NCBI GenBank assembly: GCA_035540975.1
Contig: DATLFN010000005.1
Coordinates: 9,599-73,598 of the forward strand
Source of the DNA: Acidimicrobiales bacterium
GTDB lineage: Bacteria > Actinomycetota > Acidimicrobiia > Acidimicrobiales > GCA-2861595
Reading direction: 5' to 3'
DNA length: 64,000 nt
Shown here: positions 4,848-52,678 of the stretch, piece after piece
How the letters are laid out: the number at the start of each line of letters is the position of its first letter
Position numbering within the stretch: the first letter of the stretch is position 1
Made by a program: the position numbers and the translations under genes
Notes under the pieces: model-generated
Database searches by the model: none
What the model saw: the letters and a program-made list of their open reading frames with translations, nothing else
Told to the model about the DNA's origin: nothing

Positions 4848-4888
4848 CGACGGCTACGGCCCGGTCCTGCGTGCGCTGCCGAGGGGTA

Positions 4889-27531: not shown

Positions 27532-27558
27532 GAGGGCCGAACGGTAGCGTGCGCCGCC

Positions 27559-29283: not shown

Positions 29284-29473
29284 GGACCCGGAGCGCCGGT
29301 CGCCCTGGACCGTTCCGCTCCCCGCCAGACGGCGCGCCCTCGCCACTGCGTACCCCGCGACGCTCGGGTCCAGGTGATCCACTCCGGGTCGAGCGACTCG
29401 CCCGACGGCGGGTCCCACCGGGCCCGCGGAAGGCCGAGGGCAGCGGCCGCCTCCGGCAGTGGCGCCCCCCGCT

Positions 29474-30346: not shown

Positions 30347-30353
30347 CAGGCCG

Positions 30354-32176: not shown

Positions 32177-32186
32177 GGGTTCCCAT
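32161..32186. promoter_or_regulatory. candidate operator: GAATCGTTCCC plus GTTCCCAT half-sites
   Basis: GAATCGTTCCC (32161-32171) is identical to the core of the 24963 palindrome, and TTCCCAT recurs at 32180-32186. The element straddles the start of the binding-protein gene and faces the divergent Fur-family gene. Confidence 0.35.
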
Positions 32187-32249
32187 GGTACCGGCAACCA
32201 GCTCGTACCTGCGTGCAGCTCGCAAGAATTTCTCCGGTAGCCTGGCACG

Positions 32250-33926: not shown

Positions 33927-34439
33927 CTACCCGCCCGACGCCGCTCGCACCAGCCGGTCCACGTCCTCGCGCCGCAGCTCGCCGACGTGGCGCTCCACCA
34001 GCACGCCGGCGCGGTCGACCGCCACGGTCACCGGCAGGCCGGGCCGGAACCCGACGTCGTACGACTCGGCGATGCGCCCGCCCGGGTCCTCGAGGGCGGG
34101 CCACGTCGCCCCCTGGTCGCGCATGAAGTCCCGCGCCGCGTCGGCCGTGTCCTCGAAGACCACCCCGAGGAGGGTCGCCCCCCTGCCGTGCACCGCCTTG
34201 AGCAGGGGGAACTCCTTGCGGCACGGGACGCACCACGACGCCCAGAAGTTGACGAGGACGGGCTCGCCCCGGTGGTCGGACAGGCGGACGGTCCGCCCCT
34301 CCAGGTCGACCGTCTCGAACGCCGGCGCGGCGCCGGCCGGCGCCGGGTCGTCGCCCGCCGGGCGCAGGGCGAGCAGCGCCAGCACCACCACCGCGAGCGC
34401 CCCGGCGGCGACGAGGGCCGCCCGCCGGCGCCCGGTCAC
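33927..34439 (-). CDS. TlpA/ResA-family thiol:disulfide oxidoreductase (membrane-anchored thioredoxin)
   Basis: From GTG 34439 (GTGA overlap with ctaG): a TM anchor, then VLVNFWASWCVPCRKEFP. Confidence 0.85.
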   Translation of the reverse strand: MTGRRRAALVAAGALAVVVLALLALRPAGDDPAPAGAAPAFETVDLEGRTVRLSDHRGEPVLVNFWASWCVPCRKEFPLLKAVHGRGATLLGVVFEDTADAARDFMRDQGATWPALEDPGGRIAESYDVGFRPGLPVTVAVDRAGVLVERHVGELRREDVDRLVRAASGG

Positions 34440-35332
34440 GGGCCCGGGGCGGGAGGTGCCGGCTCGACCGGGGCCGGCTCGGTGCGGGCCAGCTCGCGCT
34501 CGACGTCGGCCCACGTGAGCACGCCGTCACCCGCCTCCCTCTGGTCCCGCGCGTACCAGCGGAAGAAGATCACGACGATCACCGACCACAGCAGCAGCCC
34601 GGCGTAGATCTTCATCATGGCGCCGGCCAGGCGCTGGTCCTCGAGGGCGGACATGGCGAACGGCCGGGGCGCCTCGCCGTAGAACGGGTAGAGCAGGCCC
34701 TCGCCGAAGGTGAGGAAGGACGCCGGGATGGTGGGGATGACCGACTGGAGGAAGACGTAGACCATCCGTGCCCCGGGCGAGAGCCGGGGGAACTCGGGGA
34801 GCGAGTTGAGCACCGGGAACCACATGAGCAGTGCGCTGGTGAAGATCACCACGTGCACGAGGAAGTGCAGGGGGTGGTTGCGCACGGACGCCTCGACGAC
34901 CACCGGCCAGTGGGTGAGGACCGTCACCACGTTGAAGGTCACCGCCGCCGGCAGCGGCCGGGCCAGCCTGGTCATCAAGAAGCGCACGGCGGCGCCACGG
35001 GCCATCCACCGCAGCAGCCACGACGGGAGGCCGAGGATCAGCAGCGGCGCCGCCACCAGGGTGAAGCCGATGTGCTGGAACATGTGCACGCTGAACAGGT
35101 AGTGCTCGCCGATGTCGTGGATCGGCCAGTCGGCGTGGAGCCACAGGGCGCCGAGGCCGAGGCAGAACTGGGTGACCTGGCGGCGGGAGGCGACCGGCCG
35201 GCCCGGCCCGACGTGCCTGGGCCCGAGGCGGGTGAGCGCCAGCCAGTACAGCGTGCCCAGCCCGGCCACCAGAGCCCACACGTCGGCGTGGGCGTGCCAC
35301 TCCCACCCCGAGAGCCCGGCATGGGCCAGCAT
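34436..35332 (-). CDS. ctaG: cytochrome c oxidase assembly factor CtaG (Bacillus-type, multi-TM)
   Basis: The multi-TM protein contains HMFQHIGFTLVAAPLLILG...THWPVV...HFLVHVV. It lies directly downstream of ctaF. Confidence 0.8.
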   Translation of the reverse strand: MLAHAGLSGWEWHAHADVWALVAGLGTLYWLALTRLGPRHVGPGRPVASRRQVTQFCLGLGALWLHADWPIHDIGEHYLFSVHMFQHIGFTLVAAPLLILGLPSWLLRWMARGAAVRFLMTRLARPLPAAVTFNVVTVLTHWPVVVEASVRNHPLHFLVHVVIFTSALLMWFPVLNSLPEFPRLSPGARMVYVFLQSVIPTIPASFLTFGEGLLYPFYGEAPRPFAMSALEDQRLAGAMMKIYAGLLLWSVIVVIFFRWYARDQREAGDGVLTWADVERELARTEPAPVEPAPPAPGP

Positions 35333-35334
35333 GA

Positions 35335-35676
35335 TCAGAGGAAGACCCCGAGGGTCAGCAGGTAGGCGATGTAGCAGAACGCCGCCAGGACGAACCCGGT
35401 GATGAACAGGCGGCGCAGGAGCTTGTTGTCGAACTTGAGGTGCATGAAGTAGGCGGCCACGATGACGAACTTGACGGCCGCCAGCACGAGCAGGACGGCG
35501 TTGTTCGCCGCCTCGTTGGAGAAGCTCCAGTAGAAGAGGGCGACCTCGACGGCGGTGACGGCGGCGAGGATCAGGGCGATCTTGATGTACTTCGCCTCGT
35601 CGGGGTGCCCGGCGTGGTCGTCGTGGTCGCCCGCCGGCTCCACCTCGTGGTCGGCCTGCGCCGCACCGGTGCTCAT
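35335..35676 (-). CDS. ctaF: cytochrome c oxidase subunit IV (prokaryotic COX4/CtaF type)
   Basis: YIKIALILAAVTAVEVALFY...AAYFMHLKFDNKL. Confidence 0.85.
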   Translation of the reverse strand: MSTGAAQADHEVEPAGDHDDHAGHPDEAKYIKIALILAAVTAVEVALFYWSFSNEAANNAVLLVLAAVKFVIVAAYFMHLKFDNKLLRRLFITGFVLAAFCYIAYLLTLGVFL

Positions 35677-35697: not shown

Positions 35698-36333
35698 CTA
35701 GCTCGGGATCAGGTAGATGACGGTGAAGATCACGATCCACACCACGTCGACGAAGTGCCAGTAGAGGCCGGCGATCTCGACGACCTCGGACCGGGACTGG
35801 GGCAGCTTGCCCCGCATCGACAGGTTCCACAGGGACAGCAGCATGACGATGCCGAGGGTGACGTGGACGCCGTGGAACCCGGTCAGCACGTAGAAGCTGC
35901 TTCCGAACAGGTTGGTGCGGATGGTGAGCCCCTCACGGATGAACGAGGTGAACTCGTAGACCTGGCCGGCGATGAAGCTGGCGCCCAGCAGGGCGGTGGC
36001 CATGAGCCACACCCGCAGCCGCCGGTGGTCGCCCCGCTGGATGGCGGCGAGGGCCAGCACCATGGTGAGCGAGCTCATGAGCAGGACGAACGAGCTCACG
36101 GACGTGTAGGGGATGTCGTAGATGTCCTCGGGGGTGGGGCCCGAGGCGCTGCGGCCGCGGTAGAGGAAGTACGCCGAGATGAGGGCGCCGAAGAGCAGGC
36201 ACTCGGACCCGAGGAACGCCCACATGGCGAGCTTCTCGTTGGAGAGACCCGTGTTGGTGACGTGGGCGTGCCCGTCGCCGTGACCCTCGCCGGCAGCCGG
36301 CGGGTGGGCGGCGGAGACCTCCGCGGTCGCCAT
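35698..36333 (-). CDS. ctaE: cytochrome c oxidase subunit III
   Basis: FGALISAYF...FYVLTGFHGVHVTLG...YWHFVDVVWIVIFTVIY. Confidence 0.92.
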   Translation of the reverse strand: MATAEVSAAHPPAAGEGHGDGHAHVTNTGLSNEKLAMWAFLGSECLLFGALISAYFLYRGRSASGPTPEDIYDIPYTSVSSFVLLMSSLTMVLALAAIQRGDHRRLRVWLMATALLGASFIAGQVYEFTSFIREGLTIRTNLFGSSFYVLTGFHGVHVTLGIVMLLSLWNLSMRGKLPQSRSEVVEIAGLYWHFVDVVWIVIFTVIYLIPS

Positions 36334-38504
36334 CAGCCCTCCTTCCCGTCGCCGTCGCCGGCGCCGCTCCCGGAGGACGTCGCGTCACCGTCACCGTTGC
36401 CGGCGCCGGTGCCGTTCCCGGAGCGCGGCTCCCCGCCGTCGGCCGGCGCGTCGGCGCCCGCCTCGAGCTCGGCCGCACCGCCGCCGACGAGCACCGGCTG
36501 CTGGTCGTCACCGTGGTCGTCGTGGTCGTCGTGGGGCTCGGCCGACGGCTCCAGCCCCCATGCGTAGATGGCGCCCAGGAAGAGGAGGGCCCCGAGGACG
36601 GCGACGGCGTAGTTGCTGCCGGAGTCGCGCCCGTAGACCATCCCGTAGCAGATGACCGGGATGGCGAGGGCGGCGATGATCGGGTAGTAGCTGGGCGACG
36701 GCATGTGGATGCCGAGCTCGGCGGCGGTGGGGACGCGAGCGGGCGCGGCGCGGTCGCCGCCCTCGCCGTCGGCGACCGCCACCGCCGTGGAGGCCGTCTC
36801 CCGTTCGGCCGGCGTGCGCCGCACGGGCCGGCCCTCCTCGTCCTCCGCGTACTTCTCGTGCCACAGCGTGTCCACGGCGTGGGCGACCGGCTGCGTGGCG
36901 AAGTTGTAGTCGGGCGGCGGCGACGTCGTCGCCCACTCGAGGGTTCGGGCGTCCCACGGGTCGTCGGGGGCCGTGAGCCCGGTCCGGTGCTTGGCCGACC
37001 AGCGGATGTTGTAGATGAAGACCAGCGTCGAGAAGGCGATCACGAACGACCCGACCGTCGCCAGCATGTTGAGGAAGTCGAGGCCCAGGCTCTCGTCGTA
37101 GGTGTAGATGCGCCGGGGCATGCCCTGGAGCCCCATCCAGTGCATCGGCGCGAAGGTGAGGTTGAAGCCGACGAACCACGTCCAGAAGTTGAGCTTCCCG
37201 AGCCGCTCGTTCAGCTGGAAGCCGAAGACCTTGGGCCACCAGTAGTAGATGCCGCCCATGATCCCGAACAGGGCGCCGCCGAACAGCACGTAGTGGAAGT
37301 GGGCGACCACGTAGTACGTGTCGGTCTGCTGGCGGTCGTGTGGAGAGACGGAGTGGGTGACGCCCGAGAGGCCGCCGATGGTGAACATGGCCACGAAGCC
37401 CATGGCGAAGAGCATCGGGGTGGAGAACTTGAGCGAGCCCTTCCACACCGTCCCCAGCCAGTTGAAGATCTTCACGCCCGTGGGCACGGCGATGAACATC
37501 GTCGATATGGAGAAGGCGGAGACCGCCACCGGGCCCAGGCCCACGGCGAACATGTGGTGGACCCAGACGCCCCAGCCCATGAACCCGATGGCGATGCCGG
37601 AGAAGACGATGACCGGGTAGCCGAAGAGGGGCTTGCGGGCGAACACCGGCAGGATCTCCGACACCATGCCCATGGCGGGCAGGATGAGGATGTACACCTC
37701 TGGATGGCCGAACAACCAGAACAGGTGCTGCCACAGGAGTGGGTCCCCGCCGGCCGCCGGGTTGAAGAAGTTGGCCCCGAAGTTGCGGTCGAACATGAGC
37801 AGGAACAGGGCCACCGTGATGACCGGCATGGCGAACAGGATGAGGAACGACGAGACGAGCGTCATCCACGTGAACACCGGCATGCGCATGAGGGTCATCC
37901 CCGGGGCGCGCATGTTCAGCATGGTGACGATCAGGTTCACGGAGCCGACGGTGGAGGCGATGCCCAGGATCTGCAGGCCGAACACCCAGTAGTCGATGTT
38001 GTGGCCCGGCGAGAAGGTGATGCTGGTGTTGGGGGCGTAGCCGAACCACCCGCCGTTGGGAGCGCCCCCGAGGAAGAAGCTCGAGTACATGAAGAGGCCG
38101 CCGAACAGGAAGAGCCAGTAGCTGAAGGCGTTCAGGCGGGGGAAGGCGACGTCGCGGGCGCCGATCTGCAGCGGCACCAGGAAGTTGAAGAACGCCGCCG
38201 ACATCGGCATGACGACCAGGAAGACCATCGTCGTGCCGTGCATGGTGAAGAGCTGGTTGTAGGCGTCCGCCGACAGGACGGTGCCGTTCGGCTTGGCCAG
38301 CTGGAGGCGCATGAGCAGGGCCTCGATGCCGCCCAGGATGAAGAAGACGAAGGCGGTGACGCCGTAGAGGATCCCGATGCGCTTGTGGTCCACCGTGGTC
38401 ATCCACGACCACACGCCCTTGGGGTCGGTGGGCCGGCGGAGGAGGCCGGTGTCCGCGCGGGTGGCGACCTCGGGGACCGAGGTGGGCTCCAGGACGGTGG
38501 TCAT
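36333..38504 (-). CDS. ctaD: cytochrome c oxidase subunit I (with extra C-terminal TM pair and acidic Gly/Asp tail)
   Basis: All canonical motifs are present: LFTMHGTTMVF, WLFGHPEVY, VWVHHMF, PTGVKIFNW, VVAHFHYV. The C-terminus reads IHMPSPSYYPI...GAIYAWGLEP, then HDDHDDHGDD...GNGDGD. Confidence 0.95.
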   Translation of the reverse strand: MTTVLEPTSVPEVATRADTGLLRRPTDPKGVWSWMTTVDHKRIGILYGVTAFVFFILGGIEALLMRLQLAKPNGTVLSADAYNQLFTMHGTTMVFLVVMPMSAAFFNFLVPLQIGARDVAFPRLNAFSYWLFLFGGLFMYSSFFLGGAPNGGWFGYAPNTSITFSPGHNIDYWVFGLQILGIASTVGSVNLIVTMLNMRAPGMTLMRMPVFTWMTLVSSFLILFAMPVITVALFLLMFDRNFGANFFNPAAGGDPLLWQHLFWLFGHPEVYILILPAMGMVSEILPVFARKPLFGYPVIVFSGIAIGFMGWGVWVHHMFAVGLGPVAVSAFSISTMFIAVPTGVKIFNWLGTVWKGSLKFSTPMLFAMGFVAMFTIGGLSGVTHSVSPHDRQQTDTYYVVAHFHYVLFGGALFGIMGGIYYWWPKVFGFQLNERLGKLNFWTWFVGFNLTFAPMHWMGLQGMPRRIYTYDESLGLDFLNMLATVGSFVIAFSTLVFIYNIRWSAKHRTGLTAPDDPWDARTLEWATTSPPPDYNFATQPVAHAVDTLWHEKYAEDEEGRPVRRTPAERETASTAVAVADGEGGDRAAPARVPTAAELGIHMPSPSYYPIIAALAIPVICYGMVYGRDSGSNYAVAVLGALLFLGAIYAWGLEPSAEPHDDHDDHGDDQQPVLVGGGAAELEAGADAPADGGEPRSGNGTGAGNGDGDATSSGSGAGDGDGKEG

Positions 38505-38529: not shown

Positions 38530-39582
38530 TCACTTCAGCGTCTCCAGGTAGGCGATGAGATCGGTGATCTCCTCTTCGGTGAGGTCGAGGTTCGGCATCA
38601 GCGCCCCGGGCTTCTCGGCGGGGGGGTCGCGGAGCCAGGCGCGGAGGTTGGCGGGGTTGAGGTCGAAGATCGCCCCCGCGAACACCTTGCGCTGCTGGAG
38701 GTGGGTGAGGTCGGGGCCGAGCTCGCCGGCCGAGAACCCCTTGACGGTGTGGCAGCTGGCGCACCCCTTGGCGCGGAACAGGGCGGCGCCGGCGGCGGCC
38801 TCGGGCTGCGTCTTCTCGTCCGGGCGGGCCGCCTCCTCGGCGTTGGACTCCAGCCACTCCTCGAACTCGGCCGGCTCGTGGGCGACGACGCGCAGGCGCA
38901 TGTCGGCGTGGGAGATGCCGCAGAACTCGGCGCACTGCCCGTAGTACGTCCCCGGCTCGTCGGCCTGGAGCGTCAGGTGGTTGGTGCGGTTCGGGATGGC
39001 GTCCAGCTTGCCCGCCAGCTTGGGCGGCCAGAAGCTGTGGATGACGTCCACCGACTCGAGCTTGACGGCCACCGGCCGCCCGGTCGGGATGTGCAGCTCG
39101 TTGGCCGTGGTGACGTCGTGGTCGGTGTAGTCGTACTCCCACCACCACTGGTGCCCGATGACGGTGACGTTCAGGACGTCGCCCTTGGGGACCCGGTCGA
39201 GGTCGACGATGTTGCCCACGGTCAGGACGCCGACCACGGCGAGGACGGCGGCCGGGATGATGGTCCAGGTCAGCTCCATGCGGATGTTGCCGTGGACCTG
39301 GACGGGCGCCTCGTCCTCGGACCGGCGGCGGAACTTCACGGCGGAGTAGATGACCAGCGCCTGGACGAGGACGAAGACGACGCCGGCGATGATGAACACC
39401 GGCTTGGCCAGGTTGTGGACCTGGCGGGCGTAGGGCCCCTGGGGGTCGAGGGCGTCCTGGGGGAGGTCGTCGCCGCCCCCGCACGCGCCGAGCACCAGGG
39501 TGAGCCCGACGGCGGTCACGACGACCGGCCATCGCCTCCCCGCCGGCTGCCGGCGCCGCGTCACGGTGTCACCCTGTCGCAT
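38530..39582 (-). CDS. ctaC: cytochrome c oxidase subunit II with fused C-terminal cytochrome c domain (caa3-type)
   Basis: From ATG 39582: lipobox-like LVLGACGG, CuA site HSFW...CAEFCGISHADM, and haem c motif GCASCHTVKG...M. Confidence 0.92.
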   Translation of the reverse strand: MRQGDTVTRRRQPAGRRWPVVVTAVGLTLVLGACGGGDDLPQDALDPQGPYARQVHNLAKPVFIIAGVVFVLVQALVIYSAVKFRRRSEDEAPVQVHGNIRMELTWTIIPAAVLAVVGVLTVGNIVDLDRVPKGDVLNVTVIGHQWWWEYDYTDHDVTTANELHIPTGRPVAVKLESVDVIHSFWPPKLAGKLDAIPNRTNHLTLQADEPGTYYGQCAEFCGISHADMRLRVVAHEPAEFEEWLESNAEEAARPDEKTQPEAAAGAALFRAKGCASCHTVKGFSAGELGPDLTHLQQRKVFAGAIFDLNPANLRAWLRDPPAEKPGALMPNLDLTEEEITDLIAYLETLK

Positions 39583-39586
39583 CTGC

Positions 39587-40171
39587 TCACGATGTGCCAA
39601 CTCCGGATCGGCCCGTCAGGCGGGCCAGTCGACGGTCGAGATCGGCGGCCGACAGGCGGCCGTGGGCCACGTCCGCCACCCGCCCGCGGGCGTCGACGAA
39701 CACGGTGGTGGGCATGCCGCGGAGGCGGTAGTCCGTCGCCACGGCCCGGTCCGGGTCGTAGCCGGCGGGGAAGGTGACGCCGGTGGCGGCCAGCAGCTCG
39801 ACGGCCTTCGAGCGTGAGTCGTTCACGTCCACGCCGACGAACGCCACCGAACCGGCGGCCTGCCGCGACGCCTGCTCCAGCGCGGGCAGCTCCTCGCGGC
39901 AGGGGACGCACCACGAGGCGAAGAAGTTGACGACCACCGGCCTGCCGGCGGGCAGCTCGACGGCCGGGCCGGTCGAGCGGACGTCCTCCAGCGAGAACGG
40001 GGGGGCGACCGAGCCGACCAGCGCGGGCGCTGCCGCGTCCTGCCCCCCGCCGGTGAGCCCGGCGCCGACGGCGACGGCCAGGGTCGCCACCGCCGCAGCG
40101 GCGGCGAGGGCGCGCCGCGGTACACGGGCACGCCGGACGCGGGGCAACGGGACGGCGGTGGGAGCGGCCAT
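39587..40171 (-). CDS. TlpA/ResA-family thiol:disulfide oxidoreductase, second copy
   Basis: From ATG 40171: a signal/anchor, then VVVNFFASWCVPCREELP. Confidence 0.85.
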   Translation of the reverse strand: MAAPTAVPLPRVRRARVPRRALAAAAAVATLAVAVGAGLTGGGQDAAAPALVGSVAPPFSLEDVRSTGPAVELPAGRPVVVNFFASWCVPCREELPALEQASRQAAGSVAFVGVDVNDSRSKAVELLAATGVTFPAGYDPDRAVATDYRLRGMPTTVFVDARGRVADVAHGRLSAADLDRRLARLTGRSGVGTS

Positions 40172-41181
40172 CACTTCGCCTCGGTGACGAAGGAGCCCTT
40201 CATGTTCGGGTGGAAGTCGCAGACGAAGAAGTAGGTGCCCGGCTCGGGAGTCTCGAACTCGTAGACGCGCTCGTCCTCGCCGGGGAAGCCCTCGCCGTTG
40301 AAGATGGGGGCGGCGTCGGGCGCCTCGCTCTCGTACACGGCGACGTTGTGGAACACGTCGACGTCCTCGTTCACGAACTCGATGCGGACGTGCTCCTCGG
40401 CCGGGACGACGATCTGGTCCTTGTCGAACTTCACCTCGCGGGCGACGACGTGGACGGGCTCGCCGTGCTCCTCGCCGGCGTGGTGGAACTCGCGCTCGCC
40501 GGCGGCCACGCCGGTGATGCCGGCGCCGGCGGTGGACAGCACGGCGAGGGCGACGAGGGCGAGGATGGCCGAGGAGCTGATGCGGGGCCGGGCCGCCACC
40601 CACGCGCACGCGCCCAGGATGGCGACGGCCGCCACGAAGGCGATCGCCACCGCCCCGTTCTTCGACACGGCCAGCAGGATCCGCGACATGCTGATGGCGA
40701 TGGTGGCCGCCAGCAGGAAGGCGCCGGCGGGCAGCGCCACCGGGACCACGAGGCGCAGGCTGAGCCGCTCGCTGGCGCGGGGCGACCACACCGGGTCCTC
40801 GCTCCACGCCTTGGCGAACCAGCCGACGGCGGCGACGAGGACGGCGAGCACGCCGGCGACGACGACCGGGCCGCCGACGGCGGCGGTGGTGGCCAGCACG
40901 GCGAGGCAGAGGGCGGCGAACGCGGGCCAGCCACTCCCCCGGGCCGGGCTCCCCGTGGTGGTGGCCCGGCGCTCGGGCGCCGGGGCGCCGGCCGGGATCA
41001 TCGGCGCCTCGTCGGGGACGGCGGCACCGGAGGCGACGATGGCCAGCACCAGGCCGGCCACGCCCAGGGCGAGGAGCAGGACCATGCCGGCCCTCTCGTC
41101 CACCGCCACGTGGTAGAGCAACCCCGTGGCGGCGCCGGCGGCGGCCATGGCGAGGAGCAGCTTGGAGGCGGGGTTCAGCAC
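40171..41181 (-). CDS. polytopic (about 7 TM) membrane protein with C-terminal type-1 (blue) cupredoxin domain
   Basis: The C-terminal ~100 aa read VRIEFVNEDVDVFHNVAVYE...TYFFVCDFHPNMKGSF. The ligands follow a His...Cys-x2-His-x2-Met pattern with amicyanin spacing. Confidence 0.75.
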   Translation of the reverse strand: MLNPASKLLLAMAAAGAATGLLYHVAVDERAGMVLLLALGVAGLVLAIVASGAAVPDEAPMIPAGAPAPERRATTTGSPARGSGWPAFAALCLAVLATTAAVGGPVVVAGVLAVLVAAVGWFAKAWSEDPVWSPRASERLSLRLVVPVALPAGAFLLAATIAISMSRILLAVSKNGAVAIAFVAAVAILGACAWVAARPRISSSAILALVALAVLSTAGAGITGVAAGEREFHHAGEEHGEPVHVVAREVKFDKDQIVVPAEEHVRIEFVNEDVDVFHNVAVYESEAPDAAPIFNGEGFPGEDERVYEFETPEPGTYFFVCDFHPNMKGSFVTEAK

Positions 41182-41188
41182 CGGCGGC

Positions 41189-41773
41189 CTACTTCAGGAC
41201 GATGACCGTGTACCACACGGCCACCGCGGCGACGGTTGCGAAGTGCCAGGCCCAGGCGGTCGCTCGGGGCTGGTCGGCCCCGGGCTCGAGCAGCTGGCGG
41301 CCGGCGACCCGGAACAGGGTGAGGCTGACGAAGGCGACCGAGAGGCCGACGACGAGCCCGAGCAGCATCGTCAGCGCCGCCACCACCGTCCCGTAGGGAT
41401 GGGTCACGGCGTCGAACTCCACGTGCCCGGCAGCGAACGACATGAGGTTGAGGAACGCCAGCCCGAGGCCGAGCGTCACGGCGAAGCCGGCCACGCCCTC
41501 CTTGCGCTGGCCCCGGTCGAGGGCGGAGCGCGCCCACTCGACGGTGACCGACCCCATCAGCATGGTGAGCACCATGAGGTTGCCCCAGTACTGGTCGATC
41601 TCGGTGTCGGGCGGCGGGAACGGCTCGGCCAGCCGGCGCATGTGGAGGTAGGCGCCCAGGAGGGCGGCGAACATCATCCCGCCCCCGGCGGCGAGGAACA
41701 GGACGGCCATGGTCAGCACCCTGCGGGGCCGGGTGCCGCCGGCCGAGGGCAGGGCGAGCGTGGGGCTAGCCAC
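41189..41773 (-). CDS. haem-copper oxidase subunit III-like membrane protein (paralogue)
   Basis: 5 TM segments. The C-terminus AWHFATVAAVAVWYTVIVL parallels YWHFVDVVWIVIFTVIY of ctaE. The GTG start overlaps the stop of the upstream subunit-I-like gene by 8 nt. Confidence 0.65.
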   Translation of the reverse strand: MASPTLALPSAGGTRPRRVLTMAVLFLAAGGGMMFAALLGAYLHMRRLAEPFPPPDTEIDQYWGNLMVLTMLMGSVTVEWARSALDRGQRKEGVAGFAVTLGLGLAFLNLMSFAAGHVEFDAVTHPYGTVVAALTMLLGLVVGLSVAFVSLTLFRVAGRQLLEPGADQPRATAWAWHFATVAAVAVWYTVIVLK

Positions 41774-43400
41774 CGGCAGCCTCCGACGAGGTGCGCAGGT
41801 CGAGCAGGGGGTGCGCCGATCGGACCTCGGGCACGGCGTCGAAGCCCTGGGGCGGCGGCGGCGACGACGTGGCCCACTCCAGGGTGAGCCCGCCGTAGGG
41901 GTCGGCGTCGGTCCGGGCCGTGCGGCGGCCGGCCATGCCGCGGGCCACGTCGAGGACGAAGGCCAGCGCGCCCAGCAGCGTCACCACGCCGCCGACGGCG
42001 GCCAGCAGCCCGTACGTGGAGGAGCTGGACGAGAACTCGAAGTCCCGCACGTGGGCGGGCGCCCCGTCGTAACCGGCCAGGTAGCTGCCCAGGCCGAGCA
42101 GCAAGAAGCCGCCGAACAGCCCGAGGAACGCCACCCGGCCGAGGCCGGCCGACAGCTCCCGGCCGAACAGCTTGGGCGCCCAGTGGTAGACGGCGCCGGC
42201 CAGCAGGAGGGTGGGCGCGCCGAAGGCGACGGTGTGGAGGTGGCCCGTCGTCCACGCCGAGCCGTCCACCTTGGCGGCGGCGGCCACCAGCGCGTGGAGG
42301 GCGCCGACGGCGCTGAGGGCAACGAAGCCGAGGACGAACTGCATGCTCGTGTGCATCCGGGGCCGGCCCTTGGCCACCGTGCCCAGCCACACGAGGACGA
42401 GCACGGCCAGGGGCGCCGCCACCAGGGCGGTGAGCGGGGTGTAGGTGGGGAGGACGATGGCGTCGGCGACGTCGGTGCCGGCCGCCCACGACCCGAAGGC
42501 GAGGATGGTGAACAGGGCGATGTGGGCCCGGGCCGCGTCCAGGCCGAGCAGCGGGCGGCGGGCGTGGGTGGCGACGATGTCGCACGCCGCGCCGAGGCCG
42601 GGGACGAGCAGCAGGTAGACCTCGGGCCGACCGAACAGCCACAGCGTGTGCTGCCACACCGTCTGGCCGGCCACGTTGTCGGGGCCGAAGAAGTCGCCCC
42701 CCAGCCGTTGGTCGATGAAGAGCAGGAGCAGGCCGCCGAGGAACACCGGGGTGGCGACGATGGTGGCGACGCCGCTCGCCAGGGTGGCCCAGCTGAACAT
42801 GGGCAGGCGGCGCAGCGTGAGCCCCGGGGTGCGGAGCTTGAGGATGGTGGTGACCAGGCTCACCGAGGCGACGACCATGGCGATGGAGACGAGGGCCATC
42901 GACGTGATGGCCAGGGCGTTGGCCTTGGTGCCGCCGCCGCCGGGCATGGGGCGGGCATCGGCGATGCCCAGGCCCTCGGGCGGGCCGAGCAGGTAGGCGG
43001 CCACTAAGAGGGCGCCCCCGAACACGAACAGCCAGGCCGCGAAGGCGTGGAGCCGGGGCAGGACCAGGCGGCCGGCCCCGATCTGGAGGGGGACGACGTA
43101 GGTGGCGAGCCCGACGAAGGCAGGGCCGAGGAACAGCATCGACGAGACGGTGGCGTGCAGGGAGAAGAGCCGCCCGTAGTTGCCGCCGACGATCTGGACG
43201 CCCTCGTCGGCCAGCTCGCCCCGCAGCACCATGCCTACGGCTCCCCCGATGACGAGGAACACCAGGGCGCCGCCCAGGAAGACCAGGCCCAGCCGCTTGT
43301 GGTCGGCGGTCGCCGGGAGTGCCTCGGAGCCGGCCGGGCCGGGGGCGGTCGGCGGAGGCGGCGGCGCGACGTCGTCGGGCCGGGTCTCGGTGATGGTCAC
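41766..43400 (-). CDS. haem-copper oxidase subunit I-like protein lacking the CuB histidine ligands
   Basis: From GTG 43400 it aligns by eye to the ctaD in this window. LFSLHATV keeps the haem His and GHLHTV keeps both His. WLFGRPEVY has His replaced by Arg (codon 42627-42629). SWAAGTD replaces VWVHHMF (codons 42480-42485). Confidence 0.8.
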   Translation of the reverse strand: MTITETRPDDVAPPPPPTAPGPAGSEALPATADHKRLGLVFLGGALVFLVIGGAVGMVLRGELADEGVQIVGGNYGRLFSLHATVSSMLFLGPAFVGLATYVVPLQIGAGRLVLPRLHAFAAWLFVFGGALLVAAYLLGPPEGLGIADARPMPGGGGTKANALAITSMALVSIAMVVASVSLVTTILKLRTPGLTLRRLPMFSWATLASGVATIVATPVFLGGLLLLFIDQRLGGDFFGPDNVAGQTVWQHTLWLFGRPEVYLLLVPGLGAACDIVATHARRPLLGLDAARAHIALFTILAFGSWAAGTDVADAIVLPTYTPLTALVAAPLAVLVLVWLGTVAKGRPRMHTSMQFVLGFVALSAVGALHALVAAAAKVDGSAWTTGHLHTVAFGAPTLLLAGAVYHWAPKLFGRELSAGLGRVAFLGLFGGFLLLGLGSYLAGYDGAPAHVRDFEFSSSSSTYGLLAAVGGVVTLLGALAFVLDVARGMAGRRTARTDADPYGGLTLEWATSSPPPPQGFDAVPEVRSAHPLLDLRTSSEAAGG

Positions 43401-43407
43401 GGGCGGC

Positions 43408-44304
43408 TCAAAGGGATCGGAGGAGCTGGTCCAGGGCCATGGCGGAGAACAGCAGGGTGACGTAGGTGATCGACCAGCCGAACAGGCGCATGGCCCGCTT
43501 GGGGGTGGGGTCGCGGCGCAACTGGAAGGCGTGGCGCAGGAACACGCCACCGAGCACGGTGGCCGACCCCAGGTAGAGCAGGCCCATGTGGGCCACCGGC
43601 GAGAACATGAGGGAGGCGGCCACCAGGGCCACCGTGTAGAGCTCGATCTGCCGGCACACCTCCTCCATGGGGACGACCGCGGGCAGCATGGGGACCTCGG
43701 CCGCCGCGTAGTCTTCGCGGTAGCGGATGGCCAGGGCCCAGAAGTGGGGCGGCGTCCAGACGAAGATGATGGCGAAGAGCACGAACGGGGCCAGCCCCAG
43801 GGTGCCGGTGACGGCCGACCACCCGACCAGCACGGGCACGGCGCCCGCCGCCCCGCCGACGACGATGTTGCTGGTGGACGTGCGCTTCAGCCACATCGTG
43901 TAGACGAAGACGTAGAAGAGGGTGGCGCTGACGGCGAGGACGGCGCTCAGGAGGTTGACCGCGCCCCAGAGGAGGGCGAAGGCGGCCACCTCGAGCACCA
44001 CGGCGAAGGCCAGGGCGTGGGACGGCTCGATCTCGCCGGTGACCAGGGGCCGGTGCTGCGTGCGCTTCATGATGCGGTCGATGTCCCGGTCGACGTACAT
44101 GTTGATGGCGTTGGCCCCGCCCGCCGCCAGCGTCCCTCCGACGAGGGTGACGAGGACGAGCCAGGCGGGCGGGAGGCCGCGGGCGGCCACGACCATGGTG
44201 GGCACGGTGGTGACCAGCAGGAGCTCGATGATCCGAGGCTTCGTCAGCGCCACATACGCGGACACCCGGGTACGCGGCCGGATGGAGGCGGTGGTCACGG
44301 CCAT
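43408..44304 (-). CDS. ctaB: protohaem IX farnesyltransferase (haem O synthase)
   Basis: From ATG 44304: [14 protein letters not shown]...[20 protein letters not shown]...[12 protein letters not shown]. Confidence 0.93.
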
Positions 44305-44391
44305 GTCGGGTGGCACATTACGGGGACGCCCGCCGGGACGACAAAAGCAGGCGTTTGGCCCTCGGAAACCACGGCTCCCTACCATCGTTCG

Positions 44392-45330
44392 ATGGCCCGC
44401 CGCACGCTGTCACCCTCCGCCTACCGGCGGGTCACCCTGGTCGCCCTCCTCGCCCTCGCCTTCATCATCGTCACCGGGGGCGCCGTGCGGCTCACGGGGT
44501 CGGGGCTGGGCTGCCCGGACTGGCCGACCTGCGACGGCGGCCGCATCGTGGCGCCCCTGGAGACCCACGCCATGGTGGAGTTCGTCAACCGGACGGTGAC
44601 CGGCCTCGTCTCGGTGGCGGTGATCGTGGCCGTCCTGGCGTCGCTCCGGCGCTCGCCCCGCCGCAGGGACCTGGTGCGGCTCTCGCTCGGCCTCGTCGCC
44701 GGGGTCGTCGGCCAGATCGTGCTCGGGGGCCTCACCGTGCTGTTCGACCTGGCCCCGCCCCTGGTGATGGCCCACTTCCTGCTCTCCATCGCCATCCTGG
44801 CCGACGCCCTGGTCCTCCACTGGCGGGCGGGGCAGCCCGACGGCGTCCCCCGGCGGCCGCTGGTCGGGCCCGAGCTGCGCACCCTGGGCCGGGTGGTGAC
44901 GGCGGCGACCGCCCTGGTGATCCTCCTGGGGACGGTCGTCACCGCCGCCGGCCCCCACGCCGGCGACAAGGACGTGCCCCGCCTCGGCGTGTCCGTGCAC
45001 CGCGCCGCCCAGCTCCACGGGTTCGCCGTCGTCCTCCTGCTGGCGCTGGTCGTCACGGCCGCCCTCATGCTCCGCCGGGCGGGCGCACCGCGGGCCGTGC
45101 GGCGCAGGGTCGAGGTGCTGCTCGCCGTGCTGGTGGCCCAGGGGGCGGTCGGCTACGTCCAGTACTTCACCGGCGTGCCGGTCCTGCTCGTCGGCATCCA
45201 CATCGCCGGCGCGGTGGCCGTGTGGTCGGCGGCCGTCCGCTTCCAGCTGGGCCTGTCCGGGCCCGAGGCGGCCCCCCGCCGGCCCGGGGGCGCCACGTCC
45301 GAAGGACGCCACGCCTACGCCGGCGCGTAG
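44392..45330 (+). CDS. ctaA: haem A synthase (COX15/CtaA)
   Basis: From ATG 44392: [15 protein letters not shown]...H-containing helices ([21 protein letters not shown]). It is divergent from ctaB. Confidence 0.88.
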
Positions 45331-45360
45331 ACGGGCCCGATCCGCGGGAGAATCCCGGCG

Positions 45361-45651
45361 ATGACCCTCGCCCCCGCCGAAGTCGAGCAACCGACCTCGG
45401 ACGACGTCGCCGAGCCCGACCGTCCGTGGGTCGTCATCGTCTGGAACGACCCGATCAACCTCATGTCCTACGTCACCTTCGTGTTCCAGAAGCTGTTCGG
45501 GTACTCCCACGAGAAGGCCACCAGGCTGATGCTGGACGTGCACCAGAAGGGCAGGGCGGTGGTGTCCAGCGGGCCCCGCGAGCGGGCCGAGCTGGATGTG
45601 TTCCGCCTCCACGAGCACGGCCTGTGGGCGACCATGGAGCACGACCGGTGA
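45361..45651 (+). CDS. clpS: ATP-dependent Clp protease adaptor ClpS
   Basis: [46 protein letters not shown]. Confidence 0.93.
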
Positions 45652-45667
45652 GATCGGCCCGCTGACG

Positions 45668-46168
45668 TTGTTGTTCGGACGGGCCGTCAAGCGGCTCCCC
45701 GACGGGGAGCTCCGGCTCAGGCTGAGCGCCCGCGAGCGCGACGTCCTCCGATCGCTGCCCGCCCAGCTGCGGGCGCTGCTGGAGGCGGCACCGGACGACC
45801 CGACGGTCCGTCGCCTGGCGCCTCCCGCCTACCGGGACGACGCCGAGCACGAGGCCGAGTACCGCCGGCTCATGGGCGACGACCTGTCGGAGCGACGCCT
45901 GGCCGCCCTCGCCGTGCTGGAGGAGACGGCCGGGGCGGAGCGGCTGAGCGAGGAGCAGGCCCAGGGGTGGGTGGCGGCGCTCAACAGCCTGCGCCTGGTG
46001 CTCGGGACGCAGCTGGACGTCAGCGAGGAGATGGAGGACGTGCCCACCGACCCCGACGACCCCCGCGCCCCCGCGTTCGCCCTCTACGGGTACCTCAGCG
46101 GGCTGCTGTCGGAGTTGGTCGAAGCGCTGTCGGAGGGCCTCCCCGAGGTCGTGGACGACGACTCCTGA
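45668..46168 (+). CDS. DUF2017-like protein (conserved clpS neighbour)
   Basis: An acidic helical protein sits immediately after clpS, as in many actinobacteria. The start is uncertain: TTG 45668/45671, or ATG 45596 overlapping clpS. Confidence 0.55.
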   Translation: MLFGRAVKRLPDGELRLRLSARERDVLRSLPAQLRALLEAAPDDPTVRRLAPPAYRDDAEHEAEYRRLMGDDLSERRLAALAVLEETAGAERLSEEQAQGWVAALNSLRLVLGTQLDVSEEMEDVPTDPDDPRAPAFALYGYLSGLLSELVEALSEGLPEVVDDDS

Positions 46169-49284: not shown

Positions 49285-49539
49285 TCCGCCGCTGACGCCG
49301 TACACGTGAGGGCCGTGCGAGGCCACATGAGGGAACGCAGCAAGGGGATGGAGTCACGGGTCTGCGAGGCGCTCCGGGGCGACCGCCCCCGGGGCGCTAC
49401 CGACCCGTCTCCTCGGCGACAAGCGCCAGCCTCTGTGTGCGCCCCGGACCCCTACGTCTGCGCTTCGAGTCTCCTCGGCCGAAACTCGGGACTTAAAGTT
49501 CTTTACTTTGAGAAGTGCCATCTTTAAGGTTACTCCTTG

Positions 49540-50730
49540 ATGACTGCTCCTTCGGGCCGCAACCCGTTCCGGCCGGGGGTCGGCACGCGGCCTGCGTACC
49601 TGGCAGGACGTGAAGGCCCCACTCGTCGCTTCGCTGCAACCCTCCGAGCTGCTCCCGAGCAGCCGGGGAACATGCGGCTCACAGGCCTGCGTGGCGTTGG
49701 CAAGACGGTGCTGCTCGGGGAGTTCGCCAAGGTCGCCGAGCGAGAGCTGTGGACCGCTGCGAGTCTCGAGTTGAATCCCCGCCACAACACGGACGACTCG
49801 ATGGTGCAGGCGCTTGTGTCCCTCACCGAAAGGACTCGAGCGGCACTTTCGCGGGTCAAACGATTGAAGTCAGCGATGGGCCGGGCCGCCCGAACAGCAG
49901 GGACCTTAGGGGTCACCTACAACGACATCAGACTTTCCTTCGACCAAACGATGGATCCAGGCTCTGAAGACCTAGCGGCCCACCTGTTTGACGCGGTCGA
50001 AGTTGCAGTCGAGCAGGGCTATGTCGGCCTCATACTTCTGCTCGATGAAGCGCAGGTAATCCGAGACGAGCGGGCTCGCTCTGGCGAGCACCCACTCTCG
50101 CTTCTCATCTCGGCCATTTCCGCGCTTCAAAGAGAGGAGATCCCGCTGGGGCTGGTGGTGTGTGGTCTGCCTACCTTGACTGGCAACCTCCTTCACGCGC
50201 GCTCGTACACCGAGCGAATGTTTCGCGGGGAGGAGATCGGGCGGTTGGAGTCAGTAGAGGCCACCGCCGCCTTTACCGAACCCTTACGTGACACCGGCAT
50301 CAGCGCCGACCCTGAGTTGGTCCGGCAAGTGGTGGAGGAGGTCGAGGGTTACCCCTACTTCATTCAGCTCTGGGGGGCTGAGCTGTGGGACGCCGCCGTC
50401 GCAGCTGACGTGGATAAGTTGGATCTCCGTTTGTTGGAGGCCACGACGCCAGATATCTACCGCCGGCTCGATATTGACTTCTATGAGCCACGGGTCTCCA
50501 CGCTAACACCCGCCGAGCAGGATGTGTTGCTGGCAAGCGCGTTGTGTCCATACCCACCGCTTATGACGGTTGATATGAACTCGAACGTCAACAAGCGTCC
50601 GGGCAACATCAACGTTCTGCTCGGCCGTCTCGTTGAAGCTGGTGTATTATACCGGACACGGAAGGGCCAATATGAGTACACGGCCCCAAAGTTTCGGGAG
50701 TACCTGACACGACGCCTTCAGACGGCATGA
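49540..50730 (+). CDS. AAA ATPase with C-terminal winged-helix (Orc1/Cdc6-like, 'archaeal ATPase' type)
   Basis: NPFRPGVGTRPAYLAGRE..., Walker A GLRGVGKT and Walker B LILLLDEAQ. The C-terminus LTPAEQDVLL...LLGRLVEAGVLYRTRKGQYEYTAPKFREYL looks like a wHTH. TTG 49537 is an alternative start. Confidence 0.7.
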   Translation: MTAPSGRNPFRPGVGTRPAYLAGREGPTRRFAATLRAAPEQPGNMRLTGLRGVGKTVLLGEFAKVAERELWTAASLELNPRHNTDDSMVQALVSLTERTRAALSRVKRLKSAMGRAARTAGTLGVTYNDIRLSFDQTMDPGSEDLAAHLFDAVEVAVEQGYVGLILLLDEAQVIRDERARSGEHPLSLLISAISALQREEIPLGLVVCGLPTLTGNLLHARSYTERMFRGEEIGRLESVEATAAFTEPLRDTGISADPELVRQVVEEVEGYPYFIQLWGAELWDAAVAADVDKLDLRLLEATTPDIYRRLDIDFYEPRVSTLTPAEQDVLLASALCPYPPLMTVDMNSNVNKRPGNINVLLGRLVEAGVLYRTRKGQYEYTAPKFREYLTRRLQTA

Positions 50731-50752
50731 CATCCGGTCGATCATCCGCGAC

Positions 50753-51100
50753 TTATTGTTGCCCGCCACGCTCGATGAACACGCCGGCGACACTCAGCTT
50801 CGAGACGCTGTGGGACGCGCTGAACTGCTGGGGGGTCTCCACGGTGTCGTGGGTCATCAGTCGGCGGTGACCTCGGTGACGGCGGCCCGGGCCGAGGACT
50901 CGTCGCAGATGGCCTTCTTGGCGGCGTAGGCGGCGACGAGGGCCTGGGCGAGGTTGTTGACCGCCCGAGGCAGGCACGGGCGACCTGGTGGATGAGGGCG
51001 CAGGTCGCCGAGACGACCGCCGCAATGTCCGCGAGCGCGCTCAGGGCCGCCCGAGGACACCATCCTCCGTACCGCTCTTCTGGCCATGCGTTGCCGAAGT
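50753..51100 (-). pseudogene. decayed ORFs (frameshifted helical protein fragment plus 34-aa ORF)
   Basis: Protein-like stretches switch frame: ...ALSALADIAAVVSATCALIHQVARACLG then RAVNNLAQALVAAYAAKKAICDESSARAAVTEVTAD. The stop overlaps (TGATG) MTHDTVETPQQFSASHSVSKLSVAGVFIERGGQQ. No family is recognised. Confidence 0.3.
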
Positions 51101-51172
51101 GTGCCCAACCACGTCGACTGGCATCCCCGGGCCGCTCCCCGTCGCTCGATACCGTAGGCATCCAAGGAGGCC

Positions 51173-52669
51173 GTGTTGTTCGAGCCACGCCGAACCTCGA
51201 CATCGAACTTCGGCGTCGGCAAGCGTGAGAGCCACGACGCGTCGGGGTTCTATGCCCGCTTCCGGCCTCCCGAGCTGTCAACCGACGACGGCATCGCCGA
51301 AGCACCTGATCTCGGCGACGGCTGCATCAGCGGCGACATCCGGGAGCGGGACGACCTGCCGGACGGGTCGGTCGCGCTCGTCGTGACATCACCTCCGTAC
51401 TTTGCAGGCAAGGAATACGAGGAGGCCCTCGGCGAGGGGCGTGTCCCAGGCTCCTACGCCGACTTCCTCGACATGCTCCGCGAGGTGTTCGCCGTCTGTG
51501 TTCGCAAGCTCGAGCCGGGCGGCCGGATCGCCGTCAACGTCGCCAACCTCGGGCGCAAGCCGTATCGAAGCCTGTCGGCCGACGTCATCGGGTTGCTGCA
51601 GGACGACCTGGGCCTGCTGCTCCGAGGCGAGGTGATCTGGCAGAAGGGCGAGGGAGCGAGCGGCAGCTGCGCCTGGGGATCTTTCCGGAGCGCGGCGAAC
51701 CCCGTGCTCCGAGACGTCACAGAGCGGGTGATCATCGCGAGCAAGGGCCGCTTCGACAGGGCGAAGAGCCTGCAGCAGCGCGCCGCCGAACACCGGCCCC
51801 ACGTCAGCTCGTTGACGAGCGACGAGTTCATGTCAGCGACGCTCGACGTATGGCGCATCGAACCCGAGAGCGCCCGGCGGGTGAACCACCCGGCGCCGTT
51901 CCCGGTGCAGCTGCCCGAGCGGTTGATCCACCTCTACACCTTCGTCGGTGACATCGTGCTCGATCCGTTCCTCGGCTCCGGGAGCACGCTGGTCGCGGCT
52001 CGGCGCACTGGGCGAATCGGCGTCGGGTACGACGTCGATGCCGAGTACGTCGCGGTCGCCCGGGACCGGGTCCGCAGGGTGGAGGTGTCGCCTCACGTCG
52101 TTCCCACGACGGGCGCCAGCCCTCTCCCGGAGGTGCCGGTCCCTGATGACGGCTCCGCCGACTCGCCCGAGAGCTTCCAAGCTCTAGCGACGAAGGAGGG
52201 CAAGGCAGCGCAGGCGATCGCGATGCGCGTCCTCGAAGACGCCGGGTTCCGCATCACCCATCGGAACCGCAAGCTCCGTGGCACTGGCGTCACGATGAAC
52301 CTCGTCGCCGTCGACGGCGACGAGCGTCCTTGGTACTTCGACGTGACGGGTGCCTTCACCACGACGCGGGCCGGACTCTCCAGGACTGACTCAGTGTGGA
52401 AGTGCCTGGGGCGTGCACACGTGGTGCAGAACAAGGTCAACCTCGGTGCACGAGAGAAGACGAACCTGGTCTTCTTGACCTCGCACCTTCCGCTCGGCGG
52501 GAGCGAAGGCGACGTGGCGCTGCACGCGGCGGGCCCCAACGCGTTCTTCGATGCCATCGCCATGCTCTCTGATGCGGGCAGGTGGCGGCTCGGTGCCTAC
52601 GCCGCGGGCCGGTGCACGCGTCCGCTGCCGGGGTTCTGGACGGACCGAGAGCTCGCACGTCTGGACTGA
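51173..52669 (+). CDS. beta-class N4/N6 DNA methyltransferase fused to a C-terminal Mrr-like (PD-(D/E)xK-fold) domain
   Basis: AAGGAGG lies before GTG 51173 / TTG 51176. Motif IV is VVTSPPYF and motif I is LDPFLGSGSTLVAA (order IV then I, so beta class). The C-terminal ~165 aa read VLEDAGF...NLVAVDGDERPWYFDVTG...NLVFLTSHLP. Confidence 0.8.
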   Translation: MLFEPRRTSTSNFGVGKRESHDASGFYARFRPPELSTDDGIAEAPDLGDGCISGDIRERDDLPDGSVALVVTSPPYFAGKEYEEALGEGRVPGSYADFLDMLREVFAVCVRKLEPGGRIAVNVANLGRKPYRSLSADVIGLLQDDLGLLLRGEVIWQKGEGASGSCAWGSFRSAANPVLRDVTERVIIASKGRFDRAKSLQQRAAEHRPHVSSLTSDEFMSATLDVWRIEPESARRVNHPAPFPVQLPERLIHLYTFVGDIVLDPFLGSGSTLVAARRTGRIGVGYDVDAEYVAVARDRVRRVEVSPHVVPTTGASPLPEVPVPDDGSADSPESFQALATKEGKAAQAIAMRVLEDAGFRITHRNRKLRGTGVTMNLVAVDGDERPWYFDVTGAFTTTRAGLSRTDSVWKCLGRAHVVQNKVNLGAREKTNLVFLTSHLPLGGSEGDVALHAAGPNAFFDAIAMLSDAGRWRLGAYAAGRCTRPLPGFWTDRELARLD

Positions 52670-52678
52670 CTCGCGCCG

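Follow-up and report, generated by a model that had tools for sequence, protein, structure and literature searches.

A conserved subunit I paralogue without CuB ligands accompanies one type of caa3 cytochrome oxidase operon in Acidimicrobiia

What is left for a cytochrome oxidase subunit I to do once its active-site copper ligands have gone, and why would it be kept beside a working oxidase? This question is raised by a 64,000-nucleotide stretch of DNA from an Acidimicrobiales bacterium (assembly GCA_035540975.1, contig DATLFN010000005.1, positions 9,599 to 73,598 of the forward strand; referred to below as the window, in whose own coordinates positions are given). The window encodes a complete caa3-type oxidase and, in the same gene cluster, a second subunit I-like protein that we call I'. 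A preliminary description made from the sequence alone had portrayed I' as a bis-haem membrane protein on an oxidase scaffold that lacks the CuB site and both proton channels. Here we find that I' belongs to a large unnamed family known solely from metagenomes and metagenome-assembled genomes (MAGs) of Acidimicrobiales, that this family is a pseudoenzyme branch of the haem-copper oxidase (HCO) superfamily, and that the function selected across the family most likely does not, for the most part, depend on cofactors and is linked to the live oxidase encoded alongside. The genes for I' and for two further proteins, III' and X, lie next to one another:

41766..43400, minus strand: I', subunit I paralogue of 544 amino acids (aa) with 12 transmembrane (TM) helices (Pfam COX1)
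41189..41773, minus strand: III', divergent subunit III-like protein of 194 aa with a GTG start (Pfam COX3)
40171..41181, minus strand: X, 7-TM protein with a C-terminal cupredoxin domain (Pfam Cupredoxin_1, PF13473, 2.2e-10)

The GTG start of I' at 43400 (VTITETRP...) agrees with the MTxTETRP N-terminus of homologues of about 545 aa, and for this reason the 544-aa model was preferred over a 594-aa open reading frame (ORF) that overlaps ctaB. The protein matches PF00115 (COX1) along its full length (1.3e-76, profile positions 1-436 of 436) and is 33% identical by BLASTP to the canonical subunit I, CtaD, encoded 3 kb away. Its AlphaFold2 model has 12 helices, with a predicted local distance difference test score (pLDDT) of 82.7 and a predicted template-modelling score (pTM) of 0.87, and the best matches of this model in the PDB, found with Foldseek, are actinobacterial CtaD proteins, with a template-modelling score (TM-score) of 0.86. 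G+C content at third codon positions (GC3) is 0.95. The protein is thus of full length, with 12 TM helices and good codon usage, as had been proposed. We assigned the residues of I' by alignment with BLASTP, with MAFFT and, against the solved Mycobacterium smegmatis CtaD, with HMMER, all three of which agree; the canonical residue, numbered as in Rhodobacter sphaeroides, is given first:

H102, H82 in I': kept
H419, H387 in I': kept
H421, H389 in I': kept
E286, E260 in I': kept
Y288, Y262 in I': kept
H284, R258 in I' (codon 42627-42629): lost
H333/H334, A307/G308 in I' (codons 42477-42482): lost
T359, L331 in I': lost
K362, L334 in I': lost
D132, R111 in I': lost

Each of these states had been read by eye in the preliminary description, and the three aligners return the same retained and lost residues; its codons for the replacement of H333/H334 by Ala and Gly (42480-42485) were one codon off, the replacement itself being right. 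Further losses are N139 (to His), R481/R482 (to Ala/His) and W172 (to Ile), and W280 is kept. No aligner places a His at the CuB positions, and the outer halves of helices VI and VII hold no other His. Y262 is present, but with Arg in place of its partner H284 the His-Tyr cross-link is chemically impossible. From the D- and K-channel set of D132, N139, E286, T359 and K362, only E286 is kept. The substitutions recur across relatives: the position of H284 is Arg in 119/119 close homologues, the positions of H333/H334 are Ala and Gly in about 107-109 of the 119, and D132 is replaced by Arg in 118. These changes are therefore not due to chance or to sequencing error. The CtaD of the window, by comparison, keeps every haem, CuB and channel residue (H D N W H E Y H H T K H H R R). 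I' reaches 337.7 against a cut-off of 670.75 for the NCBIfam equivalog TIGR02891 and 324.6 against 880 for NF050116, and scores about half of every subunit I equivalog cut-off (CtaD/CoxA, QoxB, CyoB), whereas the window's CtaD passes.

Because CuB, the His-Tyr cofactor and both the D and K proton paths are missing, I' cannot reduce O2 or NO, which bears out the earlier view that it is no O2 or NO reductase of the conventional kind. Fold and sequence place I' in the HCO superfamily, but its active site lacks the defining features of all O2- and NO-reducing families described so far. According to a 2024 survey of the HCO families (Murali et al., PMC11214002), every family fully conserves the active-site His residues save gNOR, in which Asp takes the place of one; gNOR was presented there as the first such case. 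Like I', the nitric oxide reductase (NOR)-type families (cNOR, qNOR, eNOR, bNOR, sNOR, nNOR and gNOR) have an altered active site and have lost the proton channels. They nevertheless keep three metal ligands, lack the active-site Tyr and fall on the B/C-family side, whereas I' has no metal-binding side chain at the three positions, retains the Tyr and derives from the A family; by the definitions of that survey (PMC11214002) it is not a NOR. Retention of the Glu of the PEVY motif indicates descent from the A1 type. Set against A1-type aa3/caa3 CtaD proteins (PDB 7qho_D and 6adq_F, and the CtaD of the window), I' shares the 12-TM fold, is 30-33% identical over its full length, retains the haem His residues, the Glu and Tyr of PEVY, W280 and the VPLQIGA..PR, WxPK and TLEWA..SPPP motifs, and is likewise paired with a putative subunit III homologue. 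It differs in the replacement of the CuB His residues and the channel and propionate-site residues noted above, in having a 7-TM type 1 copper protein as partner instead of a CuA-bearing subunit II, and in the dispensability of cofactor ligands across its family.

This dispensability became apparent when the family was surveyed. A first homologue search returned at least 119 full-length I' homologues (52-96% identity), all from metagenomes or MAGs and, where labelled, assigned to Acidimicrobiales or Actinomycetota. The low-spin haem ligands H102 and H421 are His in 119/119 of them. The high-spin haem ligand H419 is His in 98 and Gln, Asn or Pro in the remaining 21 (18%), which are scattered over different backgrounds. 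A deeper set came from an exhaustive profile search of 1.8 billion cluster representatives, from which the best 150 matches were analyzed; these included 72 full-length proteins with at most one of the three CuB His residues and 59 canonical subunits I. Among the 72 CuB-less representatives, 28 have none of the three haem His residues, 24 have the low-spin pair only, 13 show other partial combinations, and just seven keep all three, the state seen in the window; realignment with L-INS-i confirmed these counts. In a neighbour-joining tree, whose internal branches are short, 60 of the 72 form one clade without any canonical member, inside which loss of haem ligands is scattered. This topology points to an origin of the family in one old duplication. 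A profile built from the degenerate members matched 907 proteins at E <= 1e-20, all of them environmental Acidimicrobiales sequences. When contigs were scanned with the family profile, the true members among the matches listed were in loci L009, L010 and L075, the rest being canonical CtaD from many phyla. All four combinations of presence and absence of the haem His residues and of the type 1 copper ligands of X exist, with the low-spin pair and the copper ligands mostly kept or lost jointly. The idea that a bis-haem redox protein is the essence of the module is, on these counts, not supported.

Six residues of I' (R77, H279, H350, H406, D274 and T278) are invariant in the window's clade and different in canonical CtaD. 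The three His residues (codons 42564-42566 for H279, 42351-42353 for H350 and 42183-42185 for H406) sit on the predicted cytoplasmic loops VI-VII, VIII-IX and X-XI, respectively; a His also occupies the position of H406 in bovine subunit I. A quinol site of the bo3 type feeding the low-spin haem of I' was considered and rejected on a by-eye comparison with the residues R71, D75, H98 and Q101 of Escherichia coli CyoB. An Arg/Asp pair is missing from helix I of I', the position eight residues before the haem His is Asn, and R77 stands at the Q101-equivalent position, which is Gln also in ordinary CtaD. Outside the I' clade, about 12 other COX1 homologues have incomplete CuB ligands (including P0259, P0272, P0311, P0331, P0292, P0346 and P0386), some of them being fusions of 830-920 aa with, for example, HYY, HGQ or IGQ where the three CuB ligands would be. 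CuB ligands may have been lost there independently.

The progressive loss of ligands raises the possibility that I' is simply decaying, and we examined the selection acting upon it. Against an 82%-identical relative (locus L089), the ratio of nonsynonymous to synonymous substitution rates (dN/dS) was 0.25 for I', 0.21 for III' and 0.32 for X, compared with 0.20 for ctaD and 0.21 for ctaB (range for ctaB, ctaC and ctaD, 0.20-0.31); these ratios were calculated by the Nei-Gojobori method (NG86), and since dS is compressed in genes with 97% GC3 their relative values alone are meaningful. In about 60 independent loci the ORFs are complete and have no internal stop, 90 alignment columns are at least 97% conserved across the 119 homologues, and the family-specific motifs are invariant. 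Given a dN/dS like that of its neighbours and hundreds of intact homologues, I' is not a pseudogene, and the judgement that it is maintained rather than decayed is upheld. For the cofactor-free I' proteins of loci L166 and L172, dN is 0.10 and dS is saturated, so that dN/dS is about 0.03 or lower; ctaC of these genomes has a comparable dN. Even without any cofactor ligands, I' is thus under strong purifying selection. I', III' and X diverge at roughly double the rate of the canonical subunits, with I' being 35-60% identical where CtaD is 63-77% and CtaB 72-76% identical.

We also determined how closely the three genes are linked to the oxidase. The order ctaB-I'-III'-X-(tlpA)-ctaC-ctaD-ctaE-ctaF-ctaG was found in every locus recovered through I' or X, and loci with the order ctaB-I'-III'-X-ctaC-ctaD include L001-L009, L075, L089, L091 and L092. 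In a metagenome scan that used the WAPK motif of I', the triad was present in the same order in 35/35 loci that had an orthologous ctaD (at least 60% identity) and enough upstream DNA, which answers the call for a survey of its co-occurrence made in the preliminary description. Many of these loci were matched through ctaD itself, so that their ascertainment is independent of I'. No triad was found in 13 metagenome loci with a different aa3 type. A patchy distribution of I' within Acidimicrobiia, to which loci without it (L030, L037 and others) might have pointed, was rejected because the CtaD proteins of these loci are just 48-51% identical to that of the window and belong to a different aa3 operon type. 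The module is therefore not a free-standing unit; in all cases it lay within a caa3 operon of a single type. In the window the other genes of this operon, and ctaA beside it, are as follows:

44392..45330, plus strand: ctaA, haem A synthase, divergent from ctaB (Pfam COX15-CtaA, 2.2e-28)
43408..44385, minus strand: ctaB, haem O synthase, 7 nt upstream of I' (Pfam UbiA, 2.4e-66)
39587..40171, minus strand: tlpA, TlpA-like thiol-disulfide oxidoreductase (Pfam Redoxin/AhpC-TSA)
38530..39600, minus strand: ctaC, canonical subunit II fused to a cytochrome c domain, caa3 type (Pfam COX2, COX2_TM, Cytochrom_C)
36333..38504, minus strand: ctaD, canonical subunit I with a C-terminal extension (TIGR02891, 727.4 bits, above cut-off)
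35698..36333, minus strand: ctaE, canonical subunit III (Pfam COX3, 3.5e-22)
35335..35676, minus strand: ctaF, subunit IV (COX4_pro)
34436..35332, minus strand: ctaG, caa3-type assembly factor (Pfam Caa3_CtaG, 1.6e-45)
33927..34514, minus strand: second TlpA-like thioredoxin, which closes the cluster

The minus-strand genes are tightly packed in the order ctaB, I', III', X, tlpA, ctaC, ctaD, ctaE, ctaF, ctaG and the second TlpA-like gene, so that I' does have the neighbours first reported for it (ctaB, a subunit III-like gene and a TM-anchored cupredoxin). I' and III' overlap by 8 nt, III' and X are 7 nt apart, and the stop of X overlaps the start of tlpA by 1 nt; in locus L001, ctaB and I' overlap by 4 nt. 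Such overlapping or 7-nt junctions indicate a single operon with translational coupling.

III', which follows I' in every related locus, matches PF00510 just above the cut-off (7e-7, 29.8 bits) over residues 69-186 only, and its NCBIfam matches, among them aa3_CtaE_Actin (2.5e-9), are far below cut-off. X is weakly similar to actinobacterial subunit IV. Its cupredoxin domain carries the type 1 copper ligands H278, C321, H324 and M327 (HNV...CDFHPNM), which are invariant in 33 diverse homologues, down to 30% identity. The AlphaFold2 model of X has seven helices and a beta-domain (pLDDT about 90), with a flexible linker containing GER after TM7, and by the positive-inside rule the cupredoxin domain is predicted to lie outside the membrane, flexibly tethered. 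The TM body is the conserved part of X. Many lineages have removed or disabled the copper domain: it is cleanly deleted past the GER linker in L008 and in SNTQF-type loci, and in L092 the Cys, His and Met copper ligands are mutated. The absence of the cupredoxin or of its ligands in so many lineages, together with the purifying selection on cofactor-free versions, likewise speaks against a bis-haem redox role as the essence of the module.

If neither haem nor copper is generally required, the distribution of conserved positions should be informative as to what is. As the measure of conservation we averaged, over alignment columns, the frequency of the commonest residue, with helix boundaries from the model, and compared the 72 CuB-less representatives with the 59 canonical ones:

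Cytoplasmic loops and tail: 0.55 in CuB-less proteins, 0.51 in canonical proteins
TM helices: 0.44 in CuB-less proteins, 0.54 in canonical proteins
Outer loops: 0.23 in CuB-less proteins, 0.47 in canonical proteins

Conserved motifs of the cytoplasmic face are DHKxxG, VPLQIGA..PR, WAPK..GR and TLEWA..SPPP..F. Constraint on I' has thus been fully kept on the cytoplasmic face, also persists in the membrane core, and has been selectively released on the outer face, the side of subunit II docking, the haem propionates and proton exit.

Our preferred interpretation, which we hold at a little under even confidence, is that I', III' and X are a non-catalytic structural partner (a pseudo-protomer or accessory module) of the neighbouring caa3 oxidase. 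The three proteins would form a 'shadow' oxidase membrane core composed of a I-like, a III-like and a IV-like TM protein, and the blue-copper domain of X would occupy the place that subunit II would have in this core. The genes of the shadow core are predicted to be co-transcribed with one caa3 type in Acidimicrobiia and invariably accompany it, and the core would contact this oxidase through its conserved cytoplasmic face and TM core. Over evolutionary time cofactor ligands could be dispensed with, but the three genes, the order in which they lie and their link to caa3 could not, and a protein-level, non-catalytic role is the best explanation of this pattern. A wider proposal, that the class Acidimicrobiia builds its caa3 oxidase with an obligatory, catalytically dead and, in many lineages, cofactor-free shadow core, either as a live/dead heterodimer or as a NifEN-like scaffold, is conceivable and is put forward with greater reserve. 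In the lineage of the window, I' probably retains a low-spin haem with bis-His ligation, possibly alongside a second haem, and X would still bind type 1 copper. Transfer between this copper and the haem, in either direction, would constitute a short electron relay on the outer face that may feed the cytochrome c/CuA entry of the caa3 oxidase. The relay is plausible because the low-spin pair and the type 1 ligands are invariant in the window's clade and because a tethered blue-copper domain suggests electron transfer, there being to our knowledge no other role for such a domain; it is probably vestigial. Haem and copper occupancy of I' and X are predicted, as is any electron flow.

Several considerations weigh against a structural partnership. 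The physical association of I', III' and X with CtaCDEF is one that we infer from sequence. The comparison between the two faces of I' relies on helix boundaries from a model and on a canonical control set drawn from a wider range of taxa than the CuB-less set. The co-retention of haem His residues and type 1 copper ligands is confounded by phylogeny and has exceptions (L008, L134, L136, L091, L115 and L132). The strict invariance of the haem and copper ligands and of R258 in the window's clade could mean that the module has a real redox or catalytic job there, and the degenerate clades could have abandoned a job that the window's clade retains. Finally, the position just after ctaB, among assembly genes, would fit a role in assembly equally well.

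Assembly is indeed the main rival to a structural accessory module. I', III' and X could act as a transient scaffold that mimics the oxidase core during biogenesis and hands over to CtaD; we consider this rather unlikely, and regard with similar doubt the more specific versions, in which the scaffold holds haem A received from CtaB/CtaA, or presents or stabilizes partner subunits and copper chaperones. The genes lie between ctaB, with ctaA divergent, and tlpA/ctaC, at the 7-nt distance from ctaB that becomes a 4-nt overlap in L001, and an additional Caa3_CtaG adjoins I' in L006. Among the cofactor sites it is the low-spin haem pocket that has persisted most, and delivery of haem A to subunit I is an open problem in bacteria (PMC9145763). 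However, the 28 of 72 representatives that are conserved without any haem His show that holding haem cannot be the universal function of I'. The twofold faster evolution of I', III' and X relative to CtaB and CtaD also counts against a scaffold, and a type 1 site holds copper too tightly to serve as a chaperone.

An independent redox enzyme in the window's clade is improbable. Electrons would pass from the type 1 copper to the low-spin haem and on to a five-coordinate high-spin haem, with a distal pocket of R258, E260, Y262 and W249 in place of CuB and with peroxide, NO, nitrite or a chlorite-type compound as substrate. The I' of the window does keep the three haem His residues, E286, Y288 and W280, the Arg at the position of H284 is invariant among close relatives, as are the copper ligands of X, and R77, H279, H350 and H406 are invariant features specific to the clade. 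Yet the proximal His of the putative catalytic haem is Gln, Asn or Pro in 21/119 of these same close relatives, on scattered backgrounds, and has disappeared from the majority of deeper lineages. R481, R482 and W172, the partners of the haem propionates, are gone together with both proton paths, the outer face is the least constrained part of the protein, and the module was never found away from caa3. A haem-only catalytic site with R258 as its distal residue is the least supported redox reading. That I' is a decaying duplicate, a pseudogene or functionless gene on its way to loss, is scarcely credible: catalytic residues have been lost progressively across lineages and I' evolves faster than CtaD, but full-length, stop-free ORFs in about 60 independent loci, a dN/dS of 0.25 in the window and about 0.03 or lower in a cofactor-free lineage, invariant family motifs, a GC3 of 0.95 and translational coupling mean that this explanation is effectively refuted by the selection and conservation data.

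Full-text literature searches returned no description of a CuB-less HCO family or of Acidimicrobiia oxidase accessory proteins, in keeping with the earlier impression that the module is uncharacterized, and a review of bacterial oxidase assembly factors lists nothing that resembles it (PMC9145763). Some known systems offer partial parallels to a shadow core. NifEN is a scaffold paralogue of the nitrogenase NifDK that binds and matures its cofactor. By analogy, I' would be a non-catalytic paralogue of an enzyme core, its gene lying next to those for the enzyme and for cofactor biosynthesis; the difference is that many I' lineages have no cofactor ligands at all. Membrane-anchored blue copper carriers linked to terminal oxidases include sulfocyanin (SoxE), halocyanin and auracyanin. 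X resembles them in being encoded with an oxidase, and its His/Cys/His/Met ligands are spaced as in amicyanin (C-x2-H-x2-M), but it has a conserved 7-TM body instead of a single anchor. The subunit II proteins of the bo3 oxidase (CyoA) and of gNOR have a cupredoxin fold without CuA (PMC11214002), and show that, within the superfamily, a subunit can retain both its fold and its position in the complex once its metal site has gone. In those enzymes catalysis by subunit I persists, whereas in the I' family subunit I itself is dead.

The three active-site His residues have been treated as an invariant signature of the HCO superfamily. The I' family is large, environmentally abundant and strongly conserved, and all three have been replaced in it. 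Further loss of cofactors can be seen at all stages within the family, which nonetheless stays locked to a working caa3 operon. It represents a natural experiment on those parts of subunit I that are independent of catalysis, namely the cytoplasmic face and the TM core. If I' is a structural or assembly partner, it opens a new approach to the assembly or organization of subunit I in Gram-positive bacteria, where the route of haem A to subunit I is part of a problem still open for bacteria in general (PMC9145763); if true, the shadow core would be the first known pseudoenzyme of the HCO superfamily with a defined cellular role. There is also a practical consequence. Homologues of I' are named 'cbb3-type cytochrome c oxidase subunit I' in NCBI MAGs and 'cytochrome c oxidase subunit 1' in JGI data, and such oxidase names on dead paralogues inflate the counts of terminal oxidases in Acidimicrobiia genomes and metagenomes.

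Some further features of the cluster and its surroundings were noted. The CtaD of the window is 723 aa long, and its C-terminus of about 190 aa (36333-36902, minus strand) extends past the usual end of subunit I. The extension consists of a two-helix hairpin (MPSPSYYPIIAALAIP...) and an acidic, Gly-rich, low-complexity tail, and returned no matches when searched alone against Pfam; the hairpin shows weak similarity to TM3-TM4 of X (hhalign probability 31%, E 5e-4). Upstream of ctaB, on the opposite strand, ctaA forms a trio with genes for ClpS and a DUF2017 protein (44392-46168, plus strand), which is conserved in the loci that reach far enough upstream (L001-L003, L005, L007, L008 and L089). 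Immediately downstream of the oxidase cluster are ZnuA-type and ABC-3 metal-uptake genes (29474-32449, minus strand); ZnuA is also found near the cluster in L001, L006 and L089, with a FUR-family regulator in two of these three. In L006, a divergent Caa3_CtaG (4211-5089 of that locus) lies directly upstream of I' in addition to the usual ctaG at the end of the operon.

Elsewhere in the window, G+C falls to 0.65 at 50-52 kb (region 49500-52700). Judged by motifs in their translations, the ORF at 49537-50730 looks like an AAA-type ATPase (GLRGVGKT) and that at 51173-52669 like a DNA methyltransferase (DPFLGSGST), and the region may be a small foreign island. The 1058-aa ORF at 26242-29418 (minus strand) is over-extended, seryl-tRNA synthetase domains beginning only at residue 630, and a 916-aa shadow ORF lies opposite to it; raw ORF lengths are accordingly unreliable at the G+C content of the window, which is about 75%.

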